Positions 33,897-46,113 of a stretch of DNA of 64,000 bases are shown piece after piece. The position numbers were made by a program, and so were the translations under genes. The first letter of the stretch is position 1. Every line of letters starts with the position of its first letter. A model generated the notes under the pieces. It was not told the origin of the DNA. It ran no database searches and was given only the letters and a program-made list of their open reading frames with translations. Location of the stretch: IMG/VR virus record IMGVR_UViG_3300036715_002161, positions 64,001-128,000 of that record, one strand, 5' to 3'. The DNA is from a virus.

Positions 33897-34365
33897 TTAA
33901 GTATCCTAAAAATGCTAAACATATAGCATCGGCTTCATGATCTGATTTAAGTTTTTTTCCATAAATCAATTCAGCAGCGGCCAATGAAAACTCTTTGTTG
34001 AAGGAATTGCCTGGATTAGTAAAACCATGATCTCTAACCAGTATTTTGCACAGGGTTGATTTCCAATCTATGGCCCTTACCATTTGTACTGGTATTTCTT
34101 TAGACTCAAAGTAGAATACCAAGGCCCCTATCATCATAAGTATATACTCAGATGCTCCTGAATTTACCCCACTATATCCTACATATCTCTCCATTACAAC
34201 CGAAGAAATTGAGTAGTCTTGGAGCAGGGTTTCCAGGCCGGAAATAAAACCAGTAATACCTTGGTCCCTTGGTTTGCCACTATACCTAAGGACAACCTCT
34301 CCCTCTGGACTGATTATTCCTAGTCCAAAAGAAGCCCAACCTGGATCAATACCAAGGGCGAACAT
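33862..34365 (-). CDS. ruvC: RuvC-like Holliday junction resolvase
   Basis: LGIDPG, VVMER, DHEADA catalytic motifs. Confidence 0.8.
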   Translation of the reverse strand: MFALGIDPGWASFGLGIISPEGEVVLRYSGKPRDQGITGFISGLETLLQDYSISSVVMERYVGYSGVNSGASEYILMMIGALVFYFESKEIPVQMVRAIDWKSTLCKILVRDHGFTNPGNSFNKEFSLAAAELIYGKKLKSDHEADAICLAFLGYLNEQRNDFLSTS

Positions 34366-35356
34366 ACATTATCTCATCAAACTCCCCAAGACTTGGTTGC
34401 TGAGTTTTGAAGTACTGACTTCTGGCCACTTCAAAACTAATTGGTTTTTCAGGCCTTTTCAATAGATTGGCAGCAATATTTTCAAGACTATTTTGAAAGA
34501 CAACGGCCACAGTACGAAGCCCTGCCTCATTAGCCACTGTCAAAAACTCCTTGCGGGACTTGATTGAAACATGGCAGTTGTCTACAAATCGGACCGGGTC
34601 TTCCTGCTTGACAAACTTATTAAACTCCTTTAATACTTTACCACTAAAGCCAGAGTCTTCTGTGGAATGTTTCCAGGCTTCTTGGTAATTTCCAGGATAC
34701 CAGTCCAGTCTAAGGGTGTCCATACTAAAGATGGGCCCATCCCTTTGACCCAACCAGGTACTCTTGCCGGACCCCGAACATCCAATCATGAATAAAATTT
34801 CATTTAATTTTATATCTGGTTCTGGCAAGGTCACAGGATTTTTAAGCCAAAACTCTGCCAAAAAAATCTTTTCCTTATGATTATCTGAGATTCTTCCTCG
34901 GCAGTCAGCCATAATTACCTTGGAGTATAAATCCCAGTCAATAGTGGCCTGTGCCCACTCAGGCTTGACCTTATAGTATAGGTGATTTTCAATCAGCCAT
35001 ATGACTTTACCCAGGTCAAACCCGAAAGGAATATTATCCCTATTGGTAATCAGCCAGTCTTCGGCCAATCGGGCAGAAATAAGCTCATGGCCATAAAATA
35101 CAGACCTACCTTCTTTATCTCTCTTGGCTTCCGGTTTGCCAGCATCATGGAAGGCCACGGCCAAAAAGCCTGAGGCCAGGTCAGTATTAGAAAGATCGAT
35201 GTCGGACCTAAGGTATTCCTGTACTACCATGTCAGTATGAACTAGCACTGACTCCTCCCTATGCCATTCAGAGTCTTCCCGACACAGACCCATTATACGA
35301 AACAATGGATCCGGCCTCAGAACTTCTTGATAGAAGTTCAGTAGGGTTTCTTTCAT
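34346..35356 (-). CDS. HD-domain / polynucleotide kinase (AAA_33) fusion
   Basis: WHREE.V..HT, FHDAGK, GHE; P-loop GCSGSGKST. Confidence 0.8.
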   Translation of the reverse strand: MKETLLNFYQEVLRPDPLFRIMGLCREDSEWHREESVLVHTDMVVQEYLRSDIDLSNTDLASGFLAVAFHDAGKPEAKRDKEGRSVFYGHELISARLAEDWLITNRDNIPFGFDLGKVIWLIENHLYYKVKPEWAQATIDWDLYSKVIMADCRGRISDNHKEKIFLAEFWLKNPVTLPEPDIKLNEILFMIGCSGSGKSTWLGQRDGPIFSMDTLRLDWYPGNYQEAWKHSTEDSGFSGKVLKEFNKFVKQEDPVRFVDNCHVSIKSRKEFLTVANEAGLRTVAVVFQNSLENIAANLLKRPEKPISFEVARSQYFKTQQPSLGEFDEIMYVRPWY

Positions 35357-37005
35357 AGGTTGTTTACCCTTTCTCTAATTTCAGTAATAGTTTGAAACTT
35401 GGTGATTTCACCATCCTTAAAGACAGTTTCTAGACAACCAGTTTTTTCCTGTTCTGGAGTTTGTTGATCGTATAGGACATATTTTCCATTTTCCTTTTCA
35501 ACTCTTAAAAGACCTTTGGCTGATTTCTTGGTGCCTGAATCAGTGGCTGGATCTTTTACAAGTTCTACGGATTGACCTTGGATAACTCCATGGGTTGCTT
35601 TCATTGCAAATCCCAGAGAGTCTCTGGTTACATAGTTATAGGTGTATGACCCAATACCAAAAACCACGTTATCACTACAAAACCCTTTTTCCTCCAAACG
35701 CCTAAAGATTTCCTCGGCCCGTGCCAATGTAATTGAATCACCATAGATCAAACCAATATGGCTATCCAACATCTTATACCCAGTGTCAGTTACAACTCCT
35801 CCGAAGATTTCCCAAAGACATTCTACAGCTCCTTTTAGCTCTGGGGTAAGAGTGGTTATTTCTAAGTTAACAGGATTAATATCATCATAGAGATTAACCC
35901 TATATAAGTTACCTTTCCAATGGAAATAAGTAAGGCCATCGGACCACATTGGGTTTACACCTGTTTCTAATTGAATCTTATCTAAATATCTCAAGGCCTC
36001 ATTCATGGTATTCCCGACCGCATCAATTATTTTTACCCCACAGATAATTTCTACGGGATCGCCAGAGTCAGGTCTTAAGACGGTTTTAGACTGGCCAATA
36101 CCATTTGCGGGTCTGGCCAAAATCTCCTCCTTAAGCTCAGGGAGATACTCGGTAATAACCTTCCAAAAATCCCAGGTGTCAGAAACGATAGATACAATGC
36201 CTGTAGGATAGACTTCACTAATGAGTCTACGGAAGGTTTCAATTTCTGTTTCCTTGCTACCCATACACATTACAGAATGTTCCGTCGCAGGGACACTTCC
36301 CCCAAGGAAAGTATCCAAACCGTTGTAGTAGTCTTCTAGGTAGTCTAAGGATGGTACGGTATCAGTTCCTGAGAAACAGGTCAAATGGGCAGCTCCACTC
36401 TTGGCTGCATCCTGCATTGAACTCATACCTCTCATTGAGAAGTCGTGGCATTGCCATCCTTTGAAACCAGGGTGGCCCCCAGTCAGTGCAGAATATTTGT
36501 CAACCAGTTTTTTATAACCAAGGGCTGTGGTGGCCGAGGTAATTGGCTTCCACAATTCTACAGAAAACAAAGTTTCCAGATAGGTAACCAACCAGGCAAA
36601 GTGTGGATCGGTATTGGTCACAGTAAAGACCGGAACTTTAAAGGGAACCATGCTTCCCTCTGGAAGGGCCTTAATTTCCAAAGGTAAGTATCCAAGTTCC
36701 CACAAGGCTTTGATATGATCGGTTCCGACCAGTCCGGGCCCAAGGGCTTTGTCCATTCTAGCCTTATATCGGTCAAGAATGTTTTCAATTGGTTTCCTGA
36801 AGAAATTATCTTTCCACAGGTCAATTAGAGTTGATTGCATGAACCCTTGAAGGCCGAAGAACAATACTCCTTCTACACCCTCTTGTAGAAAGTAGCTACC
36901 ACTCCTGGGAGTGAAGTTGGAATAAATCTTTTCAGTTCCTTTCGGGTACTGGCTGATGTGGCCGGACTTATAGAAGTCGATTTGATGTTCTGGGCGAATA
37001 TTCAT
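35353..37005 (-). CDS. nadV: nicotinamide phosphoribosyltransferase-like protein (Namat candidate)
   Basis: DFYKSGH, HDFSMRG, SVPATEHSV, SIVSDTWD, LRPDSGDP, IYGDSIT, KKSAKG. Confidence 0.9.
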   Translation of the reverse strand: MNIRPEHQIDFYKSGHISQYPKGTEKIYSNFTPRSGSYFLQEGVEGVLFFGLQGFMQSTLIDLWKDNFFRKPIENILDRYKARMDKALGPGLVGTDHIKALWELGYLPLEIKALPEGSMVPFKVPVFTVTNTDPHFAWLVTYLETLFSVELWKPITSATTALGYKKLVDKYSALTGGHPGFKGWQCHDFSMRGMSSMQDAAKSGAAHLTCFSGTDTVPSLDYLEDYYNGLDTFLGGSVPATEHSVMCMGSKETEIETFRRLISEVYPTGIVSIVSDTWDFWKVITEYLPELKEEILARPANGIGQSKTVLRPDSGDPVEIICGVKIIDAVGNTMNEALRYLDKIQLETGVNPMWSDGLTYFHWKGNLYRVNLYDDINPVNLEITTLTPELKGAVECLWEIFGGVVTDTGYKMLDSHIGLIYGDSITLARAEEIFRRLEEKGFCSDNVVFGIGSYTYNYVTRDSLGFAMKATHGVIQGQSVELVKDPATDSGTKKSAKGLLRVEKENGKYVLYDQQTPEQEKTGCLETVFKDGEITKFQTITEIRERVNNL

Positions 37006-37805
37006 TTAGTATAAACCTTAACGTTGGGGTTACAAAATACAGTATCATTGACCATCTTAAATATAAATATATCTTTGTAATACAAGAGTAAGTCAAAAAA
37101 TCCTTTAGAAAAGATACCATGTGTTACATACAGGAAAAGATGTACGGTACTACCAGTCTGTCTTATGGCCTTGGCCAACTCTATAAATGTCTTGCCACCG
37201 TCACATATGTCGTCGACAACTAATATTGACCGATATTTATAGGCCTCCAACTCTTTATTGTTTACCTCTATACCGACAATATCCCCATTGTCTGCATCTC
37301 TGATCTTGGTGGCGGCAGTAAACGGTAAGTTAAGGGACATGGCCAGTGTTCTAGTTTTTTCTAAAGCTCCATGGTCTGGGGCCATCAGTATTGACTTATC
37401 TAACACTGGCCGTGGGATTGCCACTAAGGCAGCAATAAATTGGGGGATTACGGAGCTACGTTCTAAAAGACCTGAGACTTCACTATGAGGGTCTACAAGG
37501 CTGACATGGTAAAACTTGGCAGCATTTATAAGGTCACAGAAAACTTTTAGAGAAAATGCTTCTCCAGGATAACATGCACGGTCTTGTCTACCATAGGGTA
37601 AATATTCCAGACTAAGGCTTACCTCTATTACTCCTGCCCGATCCAGGGCGTCTTTGACCAGTAATAGGGTCATTAAGTCATCAGAGGACCGGATGTCATA
37701 ATCCAGACAGATTTTCTCAGGTAAGGACTCAACCAGTCGTATCTGGATTTCCCCGGCTGAGAATTTAATAGGATAGCCAGGAGCCATCAGTTCAGATATT
37801 TTCAT
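37002..37805 (-). CDS. prs: ribose-phosphate pyrophosphokinase-like protein (Adps candidate)
   Basis: FSAGE, YLPYGRQDR, DPHS, APDHGA, VVDDICDGGKTF, VTHGIFS. Confidence 0.9.
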   Translation of the reverse strand: MKISELMAPGYPIKFSAGEIQIRLVESLPEKICLDYDIRSSDDLMTLLLVKDALDRAGVIEVSLSLEYLPYGRQDRACYPGEAFSLKVFCDLINAAKFYHVSLVDPHSEVSGLLERSSVIPQFIAALVAIPRPVLDKSILMAPDHGALEKTRTLAMSLNLPFTAATKIRDADNGDIVGIEVNNKELEAYKYRSILVVDDICDGGKTFIELAKAIRQTGSTVHLFLYVTHGIFSKGFFDLLLYYKDIFIFKMVNDTVFCNPNVKVYTK

Positions 37806-39157: not shown

Positions 39158-39228
39158 AGATTAGAAATGTTCCAATGTTTCATTCTATTTTCTCCTTGGG
39201 TATGGTAAAGTCAGGTAACGTAGTTCAC

Positions 39229-39579
39229 TTACTCTTCCCACTCAATACTAATACAGGCAATAAGACCTGGCCAACGATTACATGAAGCTCGTGCTTCTTC
39301 TTCGGTTTTATAAATAGACCTACCTGCCACTTCATCTTTATATATATTGATCCAGCCTTCCTTCTTAACTGGAGCCATGAATAGATCCATGAGAGGGTGG
39401 GGACTTTCGTTTGAGATACGTCCAGTCACTGTGAAAGTGATGATCTGCCCAAGTATTACTGCACAAACCTTGTGGCTCCCATCTACTGAGGGGAAGTATG
39501 CAATATCAGTCACCAGTTTTTTATCGCCAGTCATTACTTTTGCACCGGCAAGTGCTTCTTCTAAAACAAATGGTTTCAT
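39229..39579 (-). CDS. KPF-family paralogue 1
   Basis: One of six ~115-aa paralogues sharing MKPFxLExALAxAKV, DLFMAPV..EGWINI and a WE(E/I) end. Confidence 0.85.
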   Translation of the reverse strand: MKPFVLEEALAGAKVMTGDKKLVTDIAYFPSVDGSHKVCAVILGQIITFTVTGRISNESPHPLMDLFMAPVKKEGWINIYKDEVAGRSIYKTEEEARASCNRWPGLIACISIEWEE

Positions 39580-39755
39580 TTCAATATCCTTCTACTATTA
39601 TTAAATGGGTTTGGAACTACGCGGCTAATTAGGTCAGCAACTGAATGCCACCCAGCCTGTGCTTCCGCGAACTGCTCCGCAGCTTCCCATGCGTTGTCGG
39701 CCTGCAATAAATCAAATGTTTCCAAATTATCTAGTTCCATTGCTTGATTGCTCAT
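39576..39755 (-). CDS. small acidic hypothetical protein (59 aa)
   Basis: Below the track cut-off; MSNQAMELDNLETFDLLQADNAWEAAEQFAEAQAGW...; ATGA-coupled to paralogue 1. Confidence 0.5.
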   Translation of the reverse strand: MSNQAMELDNLETFDLLQADNAWEAAEQFAEAQAGWHSVADLISRVVPNPFNNSRRILK

Positions 39756-39765
39756 TTCAATCCCG

Positions 39766-40110
39766 CTAGATTTCCCACTTAATACGAATACAGTCGATAG
39801 GACCTAGGCCACCTGAAGCTCGTGCTTCTCCTTCGGTTTTATATATAAACTGCCCAGTCATTCTACCAATATGGATATTGATCCAACCTTCTTTCTTAAC
39901 TGGAGCCATGAATAGATCCAGGAGAGGGTTGGGACTATATTTTGAGATACGTCCAGTCTCTGTGAAATAACGGATTCCCCCGTCTATTACTGCACCAACC
40001 TTGTAGGGACTGTTTACTGAAGGTAAATACGCAATATCAGTTGCCGGTTTTCCAAGGCCGGTTATTACTTTTGCACCGGCCAAGGCTGCTTCTAAATTAA
40101 AAGGTTTCAT
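39766..40110 (-). CDS. KPF-family paralogue 2
   Basis: Shares the conserved blocks. Confidence 0.85.
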   Translation of the reverse strand: MKPFNLEAALAGAKVITGLGKPATDIAYLPSVNSPYKVGAVIDGGIRYFTETGRISKYSPNPLLDLFMAPVKKEGWINIHIGRMTGQFIYKTEGEARASGGLGPIDCIRIKWEI

Positions 40111-40122
40111 TATATTTTCTCC

Positions 40123-40473
40123 CTACTCTTCACACTCTTCCCACTCAATACGAACACAGGCAATCCGACCTGAGCTGGAAGCTTGTGCTTCTTCTTCGGT
40201 TTTATGTACACAATACCCAAGCTTCCTACTCTTATAGATATTGATCCAGCCTTCACTCTTAACTGGAGCCATAAATAGATCACAGATAAAGTCGTGTTTT
40301 TTGTCGCGGAAATGTCCATCCACTGTGAAAAAGCGGACTCCTCCATTTATTACTGCACCAACCTTGTAGACGCTATTTTCTGATGGGAAATACGCAATAT
40401 CAGTTGCCGGTTCTCCACAGCCGGTTATTACTTTTGCACCGGCCAGAGCTTCTTCTAAATTAAAAGGTTTCAT
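40123..40473 (-). CDS. KPF-family paralogue 3
   Basis: Shares the conserved blocks. Confidence 0.85.
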   Translation of the reverse strand: MKPFNLEEALAGAKVITGCGEPATDIAYFPSENSVYKVGAVINGGVRFFTVDGHFRDKKHDFICDLFMAPVKSEGWINIYKSRKLGYCVHKTEEEAQASSSGRIACVRIEWEECEE

Positions 40474-40583
40474 TCTGTTTCCTATTGAAAGTTTCTACTT
40501 GACCGGTTAAAGAATTGTTTGACCAGGCCGCGATATACTATATTCCCTTTTGAAGTTAATACTGTTGCGCCTAGTCTTTATAC

Positions 40584-40659
40584 TGGTGGGACCGCCCAGG
40601 GATGATCTGGGATAATACAAATTATGAGTTTGCTGCATTACCAGTTATGCTACAGTCCC
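40584..40659 (-). tRNA. tRNA with CAT anticodon (Met or Ile2), non-canonical T-loop
   Basis: GGGACTG/CGGTCCC acceptor, GCAT D-stem, GCAAA-CTCATAA-TTTGT anticodon arm, CCCAG-ATCATCC-CTGGG T-arm, encoded CCA. Confidence 0.75.
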
Positions 40660-40661
40660 TT

Positions 40662-40738
40662 TGGTCCGACAGACAGGATTTGAACCTGTAACCTACGGAT
40701 TAGAAATCCGTTGCGCTATCCGGTTGTGCTACTGTCGG
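40662..40738 (-). tRNA. tRNA-Arg(TCT)
   Basis: CCGACAG acceptor, ACGGA-TTTCTAA-TCCGT, GGTTCAAATCC T-arm, encoded CCA. Confidence 0.95.
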
Positions 40739-40763
40739 TATAATAATATTTCCTTCTATGTTT

Positions 40764-40793
40764 CTTATACCAAGTTTACCTCTCAGTATCTAA
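40764..40793 (-). promoter_or_regulatory. class-A promoter (tRNA cluster)
   Basis: TTAGAT-18-TATAAG with TGG. Confidence 0.75.
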
Positions 40794-41138
40794 TTCGGTA
40801 ACCAGACTCTTTAGGTCGTAAAAAACCTTGGCCCCATTAGCCATTACCAGGTTGGCCACGGCCTGTAGTGACCTGTCCAGTAGAGGCCCAAATCTCAAAA
40901 ACACCAAATTGGGTCTTTTATTACTATCATCTACTTCGGCCACAGAATATACTCCGGTCATTTCTGTAGTTAAGACGTATAGACAGATGTCACATTCCCG
41001 CCTCTGTCTAATTTCTTCGGCCTGGCACTCCGGAGTCCAGTCTGGGACCAACGGATTAAAGTAATCGCATTTGAGCATAGGAATAAGCTCGTCTCTCCAA
41101 TTGGAGCCAGCACAGGTACCACCTAGGAATATTTTCAT
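40776..41138 (-). CDS. nucleoside 2-deoxyribosyltransferase-like protein
   Basis: IFLGGTC..SNWRD...FNP...W...E...S.AE. Confidence 0.7.
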   Translation of the reverse strand: MKIFLGGTCAGSNWRDELIPMLKCDYFNPLVPDWTPECQAEEIRQRRECDICLYVLTTEMTGVYSVAEVDDSNKRPNLVFLRFGPLLDRSLQAVANLVMANGAKVFYDLKSLVTELDTER

Positions 41139-41377
41139 AGGCCAATCGGTCTCTTGTCCAAACCTGGAACGGCTAGTAGTTCAGCCAAGTCATCGACGTG
41201 CAGGCAGTCACACAGACAGGCATAGTCGTTTGCCGCCTGGATTACGGCAATATTACCATTGCAATAGCTACTACCTGGGGTGGCACTATGAAGTACTCCG
41301 AAGGAGACTACCTTGCCTCCGTCCAGTTTTACAATTTTGTCACCATTTTGGGCCTCACGGCCATTTCTGTAATGCAT
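41135..41377 (-). CDS. hypothetical protein
   Basis: 80 aa, MHYRNGREAQNGD, Cys-rich. Confidence 0.65.
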   Translation of the reverse strand: MHYRNGREAQNGDKIVKLDGGKVVSFGVLHSATPGSSYCNGNIAVIQAANDYACLCDCLHVDDLAELLAVPGLDKRPIGL

Positions 41378-41654
41378 ATTAGATTCCTTTCATTGGCCTA
41401 TTCAGCCCTTAAACCCTGCTCAGTTTGACACATCAATCTTTCCTGGTCCTCCCAGGTTACTAATATAATACCACTATTGAATTTAAAAAGTCTATATTTA
41501 AATTTTTCATATCTTACTCTGAAAGAAGTATTTAAAGTCCATAGTGGATTAGAAGTTTCTTGCCAGCCAAAAACTCTACCCAGCTGCCTTTAAACTAGGC
41601 CTTGGCAACTTCAAGAGGGCATTGTGGGATTTCCGGCACTTAATTTCATTCTGT

Positions 41655-41999
41655 TTACTCCTCCCACTCAATACGAACACAGGCGATAATATTTGAGCCA
41701 GCTGAAGCTTGTGCTTCTTTTTCGGTTTTATATATATTCCCCATTGACTTTCCACCCTTATAGATATTGATCCAGCCTTCACTCTTAACGGGAGCCATGA
41801 ATAGATCCAGGAAAGCGTTGGGACATTCCTTAGATAGACATCCAGCCACTGTGAAGTAAGAGGTTTCTCCGTTTATTATTGCATAAACCTTGTAGGGACT
41901 GTTTACTGAAGGTAAATACGCAATATCAGTTACCGGTTTTTTCTCGCCAGTCATTACTTTTGCACAGGCCAAGGCTGCTTCTAAATTAAATGGTTTCAT
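41655..41999 (-). CDS. KPF-family paralogue 4
   Basis: Shares the conserved blocks. Confidence 0.85.
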   Translation of the reverse strand: MKPFNLEAALACAKVMTGEKKPVTDIAYLPSVNSPYKVYAIINGETSYFTVAGCLSKECPNAFLDLFMAPVKSEGWINIYKGGKSMGNIYKTEKEAQASAGSNIIACVRIEWEE

Positions 42000-42011
42000 T
42001 ATATTTTCTCC

Positions 42012-42359
42012 TTACTCCTCCCACTCAATACGAACACAGTCTATCGGACCTGTCCAACCTGAAGCTAGTATTGCATCTTCTTTGGTTTTATAAATACACT
42101 CTCCTGGCTTTTCATCTTTATAGATATTGATCCAGCCTTCCTTTATAACTGGAGCCATGAATAGATCCATGAGAAGGTTGGGGTTTTCGTCTGAGATACG
42201 TCCAGTCACTGTGAAAGTGGCGATATGCCCGTATATTACTGTGTAAACCTTGTGGCTCCCACTTATCGAGGGGAAGTATGCAATATCAGTCACCGGTTTT
42301 TTACTGCCGGTTATTACTTTTGCACCGGCCAAGGCTGCTTCTAAATTAAAAGGCTTCAT
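42012..42359 (-). CDS. KPF-family paralogue 5
   Basis: Shares the conserved blocks. Confidence 0.85.
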   Translation of the reverse strand: MKPFNLEAALAGAKVITGSKKPVTDIAYFPSISGSHKVYTVIYGHIATFTVTGRISDENPNLLMDLFMAPVIKEGWINIYKDEKPGECIYKTKEDAILASGWTGPIDCVRIEWEE

Positions 42360-42371
42360 TATATTTTCTCC

Positions 42372-42719
42372 TTACTCTTCCCACTCAATATGAACACAGG
42401 CAATAAGATTTGAGCTGGATGAAGCTCGTGCTTCTTCTTCGGTTTTATATAAACAATGCCCAATCCTCCCACCTTTATAGATATTGATCCAGCCTTCACT
42501 CATAACTGGAGCCATAAATAGATCACGGGTAAAGTCGTTGTTTCCGCTGTGGAATAAATATCCAGCCTCTGTGTACTGAGAGACTTCCATATCTATTACT
42601 GCATAAACCCTGTATCTACAGTTCGATGATGGTAAATACGCAATATCAGTTACCGGTTTTCCAAGGCCGTTCATTACTTTTGCACCGGCAAGTGCTGCTT
42701 CTAAATTAAATGGTTTCAT
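42372..42719 (-). CDS. KPF-family paralogue 6
   Basis: Shares the conserved blocks. Confidence 0.85.
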   Translation of the reverse strand: MKPFNLEAALAGAKVMNGLGKPVTDIAYLPSSNCRYRVYAVIDMEVSQYTEAGYLFHSGNNDFTRDLFMAPVMSEGWINIYKGGRIGHCLYKTEEEARASSSSNLIACVHIEWEE

Positions 42720-42752
42720 TCTGTTTCCTATCGAAAGTTTCTACTTGCATAG

Positions 42753-45551
42753 TCATCCTTTTAAATCAAACAAAACAGCCTCAATTTCAGGCTGGGTAAC
42801 ACCTCTATGTACTGACTTTAATTTCCCCCAGTTAAATCCAATTTCGGCATCGCTACCAATAGGTAGGTCAAGCCAATCAAAGGTTTCAACCAACAGATCA
42901 TCCATGCATTGGAATATAAGTTCAATTGCTTCGGCTACTCTTGGGATTGGTACTTCTAACTCAAGTGAGTCATATACCGTAGATGTAGCCATACCTCCCA
43001 AGGATTTAACTGCTTCACTGGCCCTGCCGAAAGCAAACAAGCCAGCACTACTGGTTGGACTTTGAATAAGAACATTCTGTGAATTTCGTAAGCCTCCTTT
43101 GTATACTGCCGTTCTACGAAATGGTGGCAGGGTGCCAAACTGCATTTTCCTAAATCCAAATACCGTTACCACAAAATGATTAAACTCGGCCATCTTATGG
43201 GCATTACTGATAAATACCTCAATACCTGGGTATGTCACAAAGTACAAGGCAATCAAACGCTCTGCCTCTGACAGTGGAATATCTAGGTTATGAGCAATGC
43301 CGTTTGCGGTTGAGCCGTAGATAATACCGAACGTCAAGGCTTTTGCCACCTGTCTTTTATTCTTATAATCTGAATACAGAGGGTTACGATCATCCTTAAG
43401 CACTACCACAAACTCTTCATACGGTATACCAAACATTTGACCTGCTGAAAAGCTATGAAAGTCCATTCCCTTTCTAATGGCTTCTAATAATAATGGATCT
43501 TTGCTCAATGCCCCTAGAACTTTAACCTCGGCAGAACTGAAGTCAAAAGTTACAAAGGCATTACCCTGTTCTACACAATAACACTCTCGTATGTTATACC
43601 CATGTTTTGCCCTGGGAATCTGGGTCAAATTAGGATCCTCACCGCTTATACGAAATGAACTGGTACCGTGCAAATTATAAGACGGGTGAATACGACCATC
43701 TCTTTTTACAAAGTTTAAGTAGTCTTTGATAAAAGTCCTCCAGGTGGAGGCAATGTCATTGCGCTTGGCCAACTGCCGGAGCCATTCCTCTTGGGTAAGA
43801 CTATACAATGCTCTGATGGCATCACCATCCGTAGAGGGGTCACCCATCTTAGTAAACTTCTGAGGGGTAAACCCTTTGACCTCATACAGGAATTTGGCCA
43901 ATTCTGTCCCAGAATCCAGATTGACATCGCCAGTAACTAGTTTGATTTCTCTTTCCAGGCTGTCCATGTCAGCCCTCATCCTACGATCCATGTCACGGTT
44001 CAAGGCCTTATCATACTTGATCCCATTTATCTCCAGGTCAGTAATGAAGTCAAAGGCTGGACCTGTATACTTTTCATATGTCTCCATTATACTGGGAGCC
44101 AATACCTCTCTTTTTTTAGACTCTGGACCATAAAACTCCGTATACTTTGGAGTAGTATATAGCCTGGTCCCAAAACTAGCGGCAAGCTGGCTTGTGGCCA
44201 AACAGTCGATGCCAGCATACAGTAAAAGGTCTTCCACAGGGAAATCCTCATAAGTCCTATATACCGGCTTACTTGGACTTAGCAGGCTGTCTTCTTCTTC
44301 CTCTCCTTCTTCTTCCAGATCTTTGGCCTTAGTCAGGTCTGGTAATTTGTCCTCATATCCCCCAAGCTCAGTCTCGGGGATCCAATCTACTACGGCCTGT
44401 TTTAGACCATACATTCCCTGTAGACCAGAGTTGATCATATGAAGAATCAGCATAGTATCGAATACTATATTTCGTATCTTTACACCAGTTGTATGCCAAG
44501 TATAAAGATAATCAAACTTCATATTATGACCTACCTTACCTATCGCTGGGTCAGTCAGAATTTCAGCCACTCCAGGCCAGATTAGGTCGGGGTCATACCA
44601 AGTATTTTCCCTATGCCATAAAGGAAAGACCACGGCCTTATAAATACCGTTTTCTTTATACCCAAACTGGGCGGTCAAGAGTTTGGCCTCAGAGTCCATA
44701 GGGTCAAGTCCTGTGGTTTCAGTATCATAGCTGAGTAATACATTGTTCCTACCAAGGGCCAATACGTGGGCTATTGCCTCCTGGGCTTCAACTTCAGTTC
44801 TGGGTATCCAGATATTTTCACCAGCTCTGGCCAAAGCTGAGTCCAGGTCAGGAACTCCAAGCTCTCCTTGTATAATTCTACGAACTTTGTTTAGATCGCG
44901 TAGGATAACGCTGTAGAAGTCAGGGCCCCAAAAAGCTCCGGTGGAGTTCTGTCTCAACATCATCAGTATTCTCGGGTGAAGAGTCAGTACAACTGGAATA
45001 TCTTTATATGTAAATATATCACCAAGATTATTCTTATTAGACTTCTTAAGACCCAGGGCTTTGGTAACCCCCGTGGTCAGACTTACAATAACCTTAGGCT
45101 TAAGCCGATCTATCTCGCTGAAGAGATAAGGTCTACACTTACGCATAGTAACTTCACTAGGAGCCTTGCCTTTTACCAGGTCAGCTGCATCTAGACTACA
45201 CTTTAGCAGGCTGGTTACCTTATAAGTAATGCCTGAATCAGTAAAGGCGGCCTTGGCCAGGTATTCGATAACTCCAAGGTTTATCTTCTCTATGGCATAA
45301 CCAGGCCTTTTGAACTTAGGATCGTCCAAGGCCTTATAATCTTGAATTATGAGAACATCCAGAGGTTTTTCTGGGTTTACTTTTAATAGGTAAAAAGAGG
45401 ATGGAGCTTTTTGTTTAAGGGTACAAACTTTGTCACACCATTGTGGTGATATTGTATCAAAGTTCTCTTTTGGGATAATTGCATCTTCTACGGCTTTTGT
45501 AGTCTTTCTGGAGTATAGTTCTTCCAAGGAAAGAGTAGTTAATTTCGCCAT
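42753..45551 (-). CDS. polA: family A DNA polymerase with N-terminal uracil-DNA-glycosylase-like domain and 3'-5' exonuclease
   Basis: CRPYL..EI..LKPKVIV and TLHP (UDG-like); YDTETTGL, GHNMKFD, YAGID (Exo I-III); DFSSAE, RQVAKALTFGIIYG, TVYDS (motifs A-C). Confidence 0.9.
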   Translation of the reverse strand: MAKLTTLSLEELYSRKTTKAVEDAIIPKENFDTISPQWCDKVCTLKQKAPSSFYLLKVNPEKPLDVLIIQDYKALDDPKFKRPGYAIEKINLGVIEYLAKAAFTDSGITYKVTSLLKCSLDAADLVKGKAPSEVTMRKCRPYLFSEIDRLKPKVIVSLTTGVTKALGLKKSNKNNLGDIFTYKDIPVVLTLHPRILMMLRQNSTGAFWGPDFYSVILRDLNKVRRIIQGELGVPDLDSALARAGENIWIPRTEVEAQEAIAHVLALGRNNVLLSYDTETTGLDPMDSEAKLLTAQFGYKENGIYKAVVFPLWHRENTWYDPDLIWPGVAEILTDPAIGKVGHNMKFDYLYTWHTTGVKIRNIVFDTMLILHMINSGLQGMYGLKQAVVDWIPETELGGYEDKLPDLTKAKDLEEEGEEEEDSLLSPSKPVYRTYEDFPVEDLLLYAGIDCLATSQLAASFGTRLYTTPKYTEFYGPESKKREVLAPSIMETYEKYTGPAFDFITDLEINGIKYDKALNRDMDRRMRADMDSLEREIKLVTGDVNLDSGTELAKFLYEVKGFTPQKFTKMGDPSTDGDAIRALYSLTQEEWLRQLAKRNDIASTWRTFIKDYLNFVKRDGRIHPSYNLHGTSSFRISGEDPNLTQIPRAKHGYNIRECYCVEQGNAFVTFDFSSAEVKVLGALSKDPLLLEAIRKGMDFHSFSAGQMFGIPYEEFVVVLKDDRNPLYSDYKNKRQVAKALTFGIIYGSTANGIAHNLDIPLSEAERLIALYFVTYPGIEVFISNAHKMAEFNHFVVTVFGFRKMQFGTLPPFRRTAVYKGGLRNSQNVLIQSPTSSAGLFAFGRASEAVKSLGGMATSTVYDSLELEVPIPRVAEAIELIFQCMDDLLVETFDWLDLPIGSDAEIGFNWGKLKSVHRGVTQPEIEAVLFDLKG

Positions 45552-45581
45552 TATATTTCCTACTTGGGTTGATCGGAGGTG

Positions 45582-45827
45582 TTACTCTTTCTTATACCAC
45601 GAATTTCCTATTATTCCATTTCTGGCCTTGAAAATTGTCAAGGCTAATATTTCCTCTGACAATTTAAAAAAAGACTCATTTAACCTCTGGTAGGCTGCCC
45701 TATGTTTGGGCGAGCCTGGAACCAGTTGTTGTAAGTCTTCTTTTAAAATTTCGAGAGAAAGACGGGACAGTTTCTGCTGAGTATGAACCTCGGCCACTAC
45801 TGATAAAACTGGGTCTTCCTGATCCAA
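45582..45827 (-). CDS. hypothetical protein
   Basis: 81-aa ORF in operon. Confidence 0.45.
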   Translation of the reverse strand: MDQEDPVLSVVAEVHTQQKLSRLSLEILKEDLQQLVPGSPKHRAAYQRLNESFFKLSEEILALTIFKARNGIIGNSWYKKE

Positions 45828-45828
45828 A

Positions 45829-46113
45829 TCAGCGTCCCGGAATAATGGTCAAGGATACTTTTACAGGCTTGAAAATAGACCCGGCAAAATAGCGAGCCAC
45901 GTTTCGACTAGTACATACGAAGTTGTCTAAACGGTTGGAACTTTTATGTACCAAACCCCAACGATTACTTTTGGCATTATGTACTAATACTTCAACCTCT
46001 ACTTTACGAATTACTCCTGTTTTATTGTCTCGGGCATCTTGTCTAGTGCCATATAGAGGAATCTTTGAATTTTTCAACTGGTCTTCACACACCCACATTT
46101 GTTTTGTAATCAT
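45829..46113 (-). CDS. hypothetical protein
   Basis: 94-aa ORF with RBS. Confidence 0.6.
   Translation of the reverse strand: MITKQMWVCEDQLKNSKIPLYGTRQDARDNKTGVIRKVEVEVLVHNAKSNRWGLVHKSSNRLDNFVCTSRNVARYFAGSIFKPVKVSLTIIPGR

Follow-up and report, generated by a model that had tools for sequence, protein, structure and literature searches.

An old tandem family of six mosaic paralogues of a small PF26890 phage protein, encoded beside a DNA polymerase gene

Why would a large phage carry six divergent versions of one small gene next to its DNA polymerase? We addressed this question in a window of 64,000 nucleotides, comprising bases 64001-128000 of the 138,036-bp IMG/VR virus record IMGVR_UViG_3300036715_002161, which derives from an uncultured large phage and is estimated to be 78% complete. 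Within window positions 39229-42719 lie six intact minus-strand open reading frames (ORFs) of 114-116 amino acids, named c1 to c6 by rising coordinate and read in the transcription order c6 to c1. They form two triplets around genes for tRNA-Met and tRNA-Arg, a layout that had been proposed in an earlier inspection of the letters alone (the sequence-only reading) and was borne out by ORF analysis, ARAGORN and Rfam. A protein profile search and a DNA search of the whole 138,036-bp record returned these six copies and none beyond them:

42372-42719, minus strand: paralogue c6, 115 amino acids, first of the upstream triplet (ORF; six-copy profile E 3.9e-62)
42012-42359, minus strand: paralogue c5, 115 amino acids (ORF; six-copy profile match; structure modelled with a predicted local distance difference test score, pLDDT, of 96.4)
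41655-41999, minus strand: paralogue c4, 114 amino acids, last of the upstream triplet (ORF; six-copy profile match)
40123-40473, minus strand: paralogue c3, 116 amino acids, first of the downstream triplet (ORF; six-copy profile match)
39766-40110, minus strand: paralogue c2, 114 amino acids (ORF; six-copy profile match)
39229-39579, minus strand: paralogue c1, 116 amino acids (ORF; six-copy profile match)

A single small phage protein underlies all six genes, and the analysis established that this tandem family is old and has been maintained by selection. In our overall reading, to which we assign a probability of about 50%, the array would represent a diversified repertoire of binders, most likely directed against variable host factors.

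The copies combine a common scaffold with exchangeable patches. Their alignment contained 45 invariant columns, with protein identities to c1 of 57-71% and pairwise nucleotide identities of 70-82%; because nucleotide identity exceeds protein identity, an unusual share of the changes are replacements. Indels and differences at every base type separate the copies. Conserved in all of them are the scaffold blocks MKPF..LE.ALA, DLFMAPV..EGWINI and IEWEE, while five patches are variable (codons ~16-23, 32-48, 49-64, 80-90 and 98-111). Patch variants are shared in the pairings listed by the sequence-only reading, namely PSVNSPYKV in c2 and c4, GSHKV and TFTVTGRIS in c1 and c5, GPIDC in c2 and c5, and KVGAVI in c2 and c3. 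That reading had attributed the pattern to gene conversion, and the recombination analyses agreed with it. Among 339 ungapped columns, 155 were variable and 83 parsimony-informative, and 40% of informative site pairs were incompatible. The pairwise homoplasy index (PHI) at window 5 was 0.315 compared to a permuted mean of 0.408, with none of 2000 permutations as low; window 10 gave the same outcome and window 20 a p value of 0.007. Trees of four gene segments conflicted across c1-c6: the c1+c5 pair had high support along most of the gene (whole-gene bootstrap 100) but not in the last segment, and c3 grouped with c6 at codons 66-95 (bootstrap 88) and in the C-terminal half (85-88). A GENECONV-style permutation of polymorphic sites detected a tract shared by c2 and c4 (codons 23-37, 19 shared sites, global p 0.005), one shared by c1 and c5 (codons 47-56, global p 0.049) and one shared by c1 and c6 (codons 91-101, pairwise p<0.0005, global p 0.15). 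These results support patch exchange between copies. When patches were typed at 65% identity in the 29-protein subfamily, which unites the six copies with the 23 closest relatives described below and spans several assemblies, 27 patch combinations were found, and identical variants adjoin different patches from one protein to the next. Recombination at the conserved blocks moves the patches both among the copies and from one related phage to another.

We then asked how selection has acted on scaffold and patches. The sequence-only reading had called the divergence near-exclusively non-synonymous, citing a hand comparison of c1 and c5 from the PS to the EGW motif. This count proved exact (12 non-synonymous changes among 13 differing codons), but the general statement was too strong: the 15 pairs together contain 808 differing codons, of which 176 (22%) were synonymous-only, about the level of unselected change, and the gene-wide ratio of non-synonymous to synonymous rates (dN/dS, ω) was 0.74-0.97. 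Pairwise gene-wide dN/dS ranged from 0.54 to 1.33 by NG86 and from 0.54 to 1.52 by maximum likelihood (ML), exceeding 1 in three of 15 pairs with either method and in six of 14 pairs with YN00, at pairwise dS values of 0.16-0.64. Site models revealed heterogeneity along the gene. On the whole-gene tree, log-likelihoods (lnL) were -1575.14 for M1a and -1553.95 for M2a (2ΔlnL 42.4), with 21% of codons at ω 5.0; the gain was 42.6 for M8 over M7 and 42.3 for M8 over M8a. Since recombination inflates likelihood-ratio tests, segment and simulation analyses were performed. Each of four segments analysed on its own tree favoured M2a at p<0.03 (2ΔlnL 7.1, 11.7, 9.8 and 9.7; sum 38.4, 8 degrees of freedom, p 6e-6; the ω estimate of the last segment is degenerate). 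The largest value among 40 M1a null datasets, simulated on four segment trees and analysed on one tree, was 21.4, compared to the observed 42.4. Restricting the data to patches (66 codons) gave an M0 ω of 1.53 (p 0.02 versus 1) and an M2a gain of 30.3, and the conserved blocks (54 codons) gave an ω of 0.26 and no gain under M2a. The scaffold is under strong purifying selection (ω ~0.26), replacements in the patches occur at or above the synonymous rate and a subset of patch codons is probably under diversifying selection. About 15 codons fall at ω ~4-5 (alignment columns 19, 35, 39, 43, 47, 48, 62, 64, 86, 88, 98, 101, 102, 105 and 107). Diversifying selection, as proposed from the letters, is therefore supported for a codon subset by the M2a and M8 comparisons, the own-tree segments, the null simulations and the patch-only ω, but not for the genes as a whole.

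Profile searches placed the six copies in a divergent subfamily of PF26890 (Phage_HP1_YO09), the ORF9-type protein of Haemophilus phage HP1, a family that is widespread in tailed phages. With the six-copy profile, 3714 representative clusters were retrieved at E<=1e-3, and a word-indexed search yielded 5435 proteins at E<=1e-5. Full-length homology to proteins annotated with PF26890.1 was found at 100% query cover (P0152, 1.8e-27; P0193, 2.6e-26; P0230, 6.3e-26). Precomputed PF26890.1 annotations are present on most relatives at 35-47% identity and on none of the six copies or their 23 closest relatives. The nearest Atlas clusters bear the name Phage_HP1_YO09, with 57%, 43% and 25% of their members carrying PF26890, and a structure match to the Atlas cluster 'HP1 protein YO09 domain-containing' had template modelling (TM) scores of 0.80/0.77 over 112 residues. 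Scores of the six-copy profile set the subfamily apart: 23 further proteins reached 166-197 bits, followed by a gap down to 114 bits, and the resulting 29-protein clade had a support of 99/99. The copies resemble PF26890 in length, conserved blocks and predicted fold; they differ in that the 29-protein subfamily lacks, by consensus comparison, the TRDG-type motif of the family in block 1, and in their number, six here compared to one or two at other loci. Searches for functional labels were negative: no Pfam match in any of 120 aligned homologues (using a Pfam copy without the PF26890 model), no PADLOC family for ten locus proteins at E<=0.01 and, in literature searches on Phage_HP1_YO09/PF26890 and on tandem paralogues under diversifying selection or in anti-defence, nothing on this family. 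The 'kinase' label of phrog_9552, carried by 57 of the 120 homologues and no window copy, is unlikely for a ~115-residue, β-rich protein and was not used.

Longer members of the family hint at its domain organization. Of 8000 scored candidates, 287 were extended forms at E<=1e-8, most of them with an added Cys-rich N-terminal region that has no Pfam match. Eight extended forms contained no Pfam domain; P0004 gave one sub-threshold DUF7862 match. In two metagenomic proteins, P0273 and P0326, the YO09 domain is fused to DUF4406, which we take to be part of the N-deoxyribosyltransferase clan. P0002 (368 amino acids) has three N-terminal halves before a full domain and P0240 (238 amino acids) two, which argues that the SH3-like half described next is an autonomous module.

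For structure prediction, an AlphaFold2 model of c5 was built with 120 homologues, reaching a predicted TM score (pTM) of 0.76 in addition to the high pLDDT given above; it replaced a poor six-sequence model with a pLDDT of 60. The predicted fold opens with a short strand and helix at the N terminus, continues as an SH3-like barrel of five strands (residues ~3-70) and ends in a strand-strand-helix-strand arrangement (~70-115), the C-terminal β-β-α-β unit being predicted to pack against the small N-terminal β-barrel. The best match in BFVD was A0A6J7W8A9 (TM 0.82, E 3.9e-10), and every BFVD match was uncharacterized. A second look with VIA listed weak barrel matches to residues 3-70 (Z 2.6-3.7), including PsaE, EF-P/eIF5A domain I, WYL, Tudor and UvrD C-terminal-type domains, and a sequence profile search of the PDB had no match at E<=1. 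A possible likeness of the N-terminal motif to Tad2/DUF2829 found no support in Pfam scans or fold lists and is no more than a lead. The homodimer prediction score of 0.07 counts neither way.

We also compared the array with other occurrences of the family. Among 129 other loci from viral and metagenome collections, 111 had one family match and 18 had two, some of these being split or partial genes, which makes a six-copy array exceptional. Eight isolated-phage records contain a family member, each in one place. Members occur in isolated phages of Ralstonia, Burkholderia, Alcaligenes and Paraglaciecola, where the gene lies amid small hypothetical genes of the early region: in Burkholderia phage JC1 (gp26) it is downstream of helicase, replication initiator and DnaC-like genes, and in Ralstonia phage Gerry (gp50) and Alcaligenes phage vB_Af_QDWS535 (gp54) it is adjoined by small hypothetical genes only. 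Loci L007, L008 and L056 have single copies in non-syntenic contexts, and nine distant loci (30-39% identity) in metagenome-assembled genomes of several phyla were uninformative about the host. Isolated phages contained no megablast match to the locus. By polymerase, the closest isolated phages are 186-187-kb Vibrio phages at 40.6% identity, none of which is among the eight records. In the subfamily tree, the six copies are intermixed with those of other contigs, for example, c6 with P0168 and P0001 (support 99/97) and c5 with P0187 (96/83). Copy number in relatives was accessible from protein records only: seven subfamily proteins have a longest recorded contig of 6558 bp and three others one of 2422 bp, and from these shared contig records related phages probably also carry arrays. 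Because the copies are only 70-82% identical at the nucleotide level and their paralogue types are common to other contigs, they are old and not the product of a recent accordion. The description 'accordion-like' in the sequence-only reading holds as ancient history, but not in the sense of near-identical units, given this identity and the dS range.

The anatomy of the array preserves traces of how it may have arisen. Besides the six paralogues, the following features were annotated, in transcription order:

42753-45551, minus strand: DNA polymerase A gene (polA), 932 amino acids (Pfam DNA_pol_A 3.1e-59; DNA_pol_A_exo1, a 3'-5' exonuclease, 3e-14; UDG 1.2e-5)
42720-42747, minus strand: 28-nt leader with a ribosome-binding site (RBS) before c6 (27/28 identical to 40474-40501)
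41578-41600, minus strand: terminator-like hairpin and T-run, 55 nt past the c4 stop (consensus match only)
41494-41465, minus strand: promoter-like site after the c4 hairpin (consensus match only)
41135-41377, minus strand: 80-amino-acid ORF in the gap between the triplets (no family match in Pfam, PHROG, NCBIfam or PADLOC)
40776-41138, minus strand: 120-amino-acid, nucleoside 2-deoxyribosyltransferase-like ORF between the triplets (Pfam PF15891, Nuc_deoxyri_tr2, E 1.1e-7, 32.5 bits versus a cutoff of 30)
40662-40738, minus strand: tRNA-Arg (TCT) (ARAGORN; Rfam tRNA 66.7 bits)
40584-40659, minus strand: tRNA-Met (CAT) (ARAGORN; Rfam tRNA 54.3 bits)
40474-40501, minus strand: second 28-nt leader, before c3 (27/28 identity to the c6 leader)
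39576-39755, minus strand: strongly acidic 59-amino-acid ORF between c2 and c1, its stop overlapping the c1 start (ATGA) (no Pfam or PHROG match)
39174-39197, minus strand: vestigial unit junction past c1, consisting of an inter-copy spacer with RBS and seven bases from the start of a copy (repeat family D5; identity to true junctions 75-88%)

The triplet heads c6 and c3 are preceded by the 28-nt leader instead of the 12-nt spacers that separate c6/c5, c5/c4 and c3/c2, which contain an RBS only and no stem-loop. Leader similarity between c6 and c3 ends just upstream of the 28 nt, and the upstream duplication noted from the letters is thus real at 27 of 28 positions. The duplicated leader and the vestigial junction point to an origin by unequal recombination. 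This junction is followed by a nine-codon frame that ends at the start of a 207-amino-acid phrog_4243 gene, and the 59-residue acidic ORF may be an inserted moron. The c6 start lies 33 nt past the stop of polA on the same strand. On the upstream side, beyond polA, an RNA-ligase-like gene and a primase were found; past c1 follow the phrog_4243 protein and genes for a ribose-phosphate-pyrophosphokinase-like protein, a NAMPT-like protein and AAA_33.

Further observations concern these neighbours. The last three genes are co-oriented at window positions 34346-37805 on the minus strand (NAMPT-like, with NAPRTase at 4.2e-41 and NAMPT_N; ribose-phosphate-pyrophosphokinase-like; AAA_33 kinase-like), a trio that we take to resemble phage nicotinamide adenine dinucleotide (NAD+) salvage or reconstitution pathways countering NAD-depleting defences. 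The polymerase has its UDG-superfamily domain at residues 112-203 (E 1.2e-5), N-terminal to the 3'-5' exonuclease, and a terminator-like hairpin (42794-42776) lies inside the last codons of polA. Downstream of c4, 18 nt at 41546-41563 are 78% identical to the tRNA-Arg anticodon-arm region at 40697-40714; a degenerate tRNA at this site (repeat family D8) was unsupported by ARAGORN and Rfam, and the segment may be a remnant or a chance match. Antisense, plus-strand terminator-like hairpins occur at 40043-40062, 40406-40425 and 42292-42311, the same place in c2, c3 and c5 (codons ~11-23, including patch 1). They form part of an excess of terminator-like sites, 21 found versus 7.0 expected.

Independent assemblies provided a view of the array beyond the original record. 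Four DNA runs from four studies of sediment and microbial-mat metagenomes contained 79-96% of sampled locus words; no RNA run was among the sequencing runs listed for the locus. Contigs of the four runs matched the array flanks almost without difference, and contigs with zero differences covered c1, the 59-residue ORF and c2 (39551-40026), c2/c3 (40075-40260), c3, the tRNAs and c4 (40234-41775), a c4/c5 piece (41988-42335, run X2) and c6/polA (42420-46000). For the c5/c6 junction, no bridging contig was present among the pieces listed. The assemblies fragment inside the array, where many variant pieces of 85-99% identity and inter-copy joints with short sides map. This fragmentation is weak evidence for co-occurring array variants.

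These data bear on several alternative explanations. The genes could be redundant duplicates under relaxed constraint, amplified perhaps for dosage, with a purified scaffold, loops subject to drift and gene conversion, and no repertoire; we consider this possible, with the odds clearly against it. A number of results lean in its direction or otherwise weigh against a repertoire of binders. Gene-wide ω is about neutral (0.74 by summed NG86, 0.97 under M0), and the single-tree likelihood-ratio test is inflated by recombination, with eight of 40 null simulations exceeding 5.99. When ω was obtained by counting with local synonymous rates, the five patches gave 1.57, 0.99, 1.81, 0.68 and 0.82, and segment 33-65 alone had an M0 ω of 1.51 (p 0.13 versus 1). 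Synonymous divergence is itself uneven, with a dS of 0.42 in amino-acid-variable and 0.30 in invariant columns. At the 15 codons with posterior >0.8, the proportion of synonymous differences (pS) was 0.52 compared to 0.63 for non-synonymous ones (pN), a high pS by which old, saturated cassette divergence may add to the apparent ω>1. The same regions vary family-wide among PF26890 relatives, candidate selected codons show no significant loop enrichment (10 of 61 loop positions versus five of 54 helix or strand positions, p 0.28), and the patch limits were set after viewing the data. The codon models (GY94/F3x4) were run in our own implementation on six sequences with naive empirical Bayes (NEB) rather than Bayes empirical Bayes (BEB) posteriors. 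As to function, Foldseek found nothing in the PDB at E<=1e-3, VIA had no PDB match at Z>=5 (best Z 4.1 over 36 residues in a wide search, 3.9 in the second look), the six copies had no match in Pfam (again without the PF26890 model), PHROG, NCBIfam or PADLOC, and no function is known for any PF26890 member. Against relaxed constraint, however, stand an observed 2ΔlnL above all 40 nulls, the preference for M2a in four of four own-tree segments and the elevated patch-only ω. Distinct paralogue types persist across contigs, which is unexpected for interchangeable drifting copies, and all six frames are intact despite the accumulated dS.

A role inside the phage is a second alternative, in which the copies are accessory factors of replication or nucleic-acid metabolism, with the SH3-like barrel binding DNA, RNA or a part of the replisome or RNA polymerase and each copy serving the phage's own templates or partners. 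The position of the array between polA and nucleotide/NAD metabolism genes fits this proposal, as do the JC1 gene order, the two DUF4406 fusions, the PF15891-like ORF inside the array and the weak likeness of residues 3-70 to KOW, Tudor, WYL and UvrD C-terminal-type barrels (Z 2.8-3.9). These fold matches are, however, within the chance range (Z<5), the neighbours in Gerry and QDWS535 are small hypothetical genes only, and a DUF4406-like neighbour occurs in just two of 129 other loci (L046 and L121), with a homologue of the 120-residue ORF in none. Conserved internal partners, moreover, would not favour patch replacements, and we regard the proposal as improbable. An assembly artefact, with strain variants strung together or chimerized into apparent copies and mosaics, appears very unlikely. 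The copy order does rest on a short-read metagenome assembly, a further caution for the repertoire, and the Logan contigs of four runs break inside the array, to which the variant pieces and joints map. The copies nevertheless differ by 18-30% at the nucleotide level, they are separated by two kinds of junction (leader and 12-nt spacer) and by unique genes and tRNAs, independent contigs cross five junction spans without a difference (c5/c6 being unbridged among the pieces listed), and the same patch sharing appears in proteins from other assemblies. Hypermutation of the copies by a diversity-generating retroelement (DGR) merits almost no credence. Mismatches fell on adenines of the putative template at 22-33% in the coding and 17-28% in the other strand, compared to adenine contents of 31-33% and 24-27%; the record has no seventh, template-like DNA copy, and the copies show indels and differences of all base types. 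Without adenine bias and without a template repeat, the array is contradicted as a DGR target.

The array, a well-defined finding with statistical support, belongs to a known evolutionary kind. The 'genomic accordions' of poxviruses are one related system. Among phages, segmental amplification of counter-defence genes has been described for tifA in T4, where it acts against ToxIN (Srikant et al. 2022, PMC9391042), and in T6, where SegB drives an amplification that takes in a tRNA locus (Chihara et al. 2026, PMC13096335). As there, a small accessory phage gene is multiplied in tandem, and the array here adjoins tRNAs. The T4 and T6 accordions are recent, near-identical and unstable, whereas the present copies are 70-82% identical, all different and of types common to other contigs; in addition, no homing endonuclease was seen beside the tRNAs here and no counter-defence activity is known for PF26890. 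By this comparison, the array would be at most a late, diversified outcome of an accordion-type event. Hyperplastic regions of T4-type phages are reported to be shuffled via promoter-stem-loop (PeSL) cassettes (Arbiol et al. 2010, PMC2839356; Comeau et al. 2014, PMC4122927). Both cases involve variable accessory genes of large lytic phages reshuffled at short conserved sequences, but the T4-type exchange reportedly swaps whole genes at intergenic regulatory cassettes, whereas here intragenic patches are exchanged at conserved coding blocks. No PeSL cassette was found between the array genes, which are joined by 12-nt RBS spacers, with one terminator-like hairpin after c4. Phage proteins involved in contact with the host have also been found to shuffle fragments (Smug et al. 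2023, PMC10684548). That work shares with our case an ongoing protein-fragment mosaicism read as arms-race diversification; it concerns domains common to otherwise unrelated proteins (receptor-binding proteins, endolysins and polymerases) rather than sub-domain patches in tandem paralogues.

Taken as a repertoire of binders, the array could be explained as follows. It probably began as a tandem amplification, in the course of which a block of leader plus gene was duplicated, and diversification followed. Its position 33 nt past the polA stop on the same strand, together with the short RBS spacers, suggests polycistronic expression with replication genes. Each gene presents a different combination of patch variants on the common scaffold, and the copies may bind through these patches, sharing one core activity and differing in specificity. 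The targets would most likely be variable host proteins, either in counter-defence or in host takeover. A more far-reaching version is tentative and, in our estimate, rather unlikely to hold in full: the array may act as a heritable combinatorial binder library in which the conserved blocks serve as recombination joints and five cassettes are reassorted within the genome and among co-infecting related phages, generating many specificities against polymorphic immune or housekeeping proteins of the host. If so, phages at large would be using the YO09 family, with its thousands of clusters, as a scaffold with which to inhibit proteins of the host.

In this lineage the gene was amplified with every reading frame preserved, its patches were recombined and its evolution was driven towards amino-acid change, a history that points to a family engaged with something variable, for which the host is the likeliest candidate. 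The analysis separates residues suited for mutation (the 15 listed columns) from those of the scaffold. Should the copies bind different defence proteins, the family would join the known anti-defence proteins as a new scaffold; otherwise, it would stand as a clear but ordinary recombining paralogue family. The array may also offer a natural example of phage gene amplification long after the event, complementing the laboratory accordions of T4 and T6.

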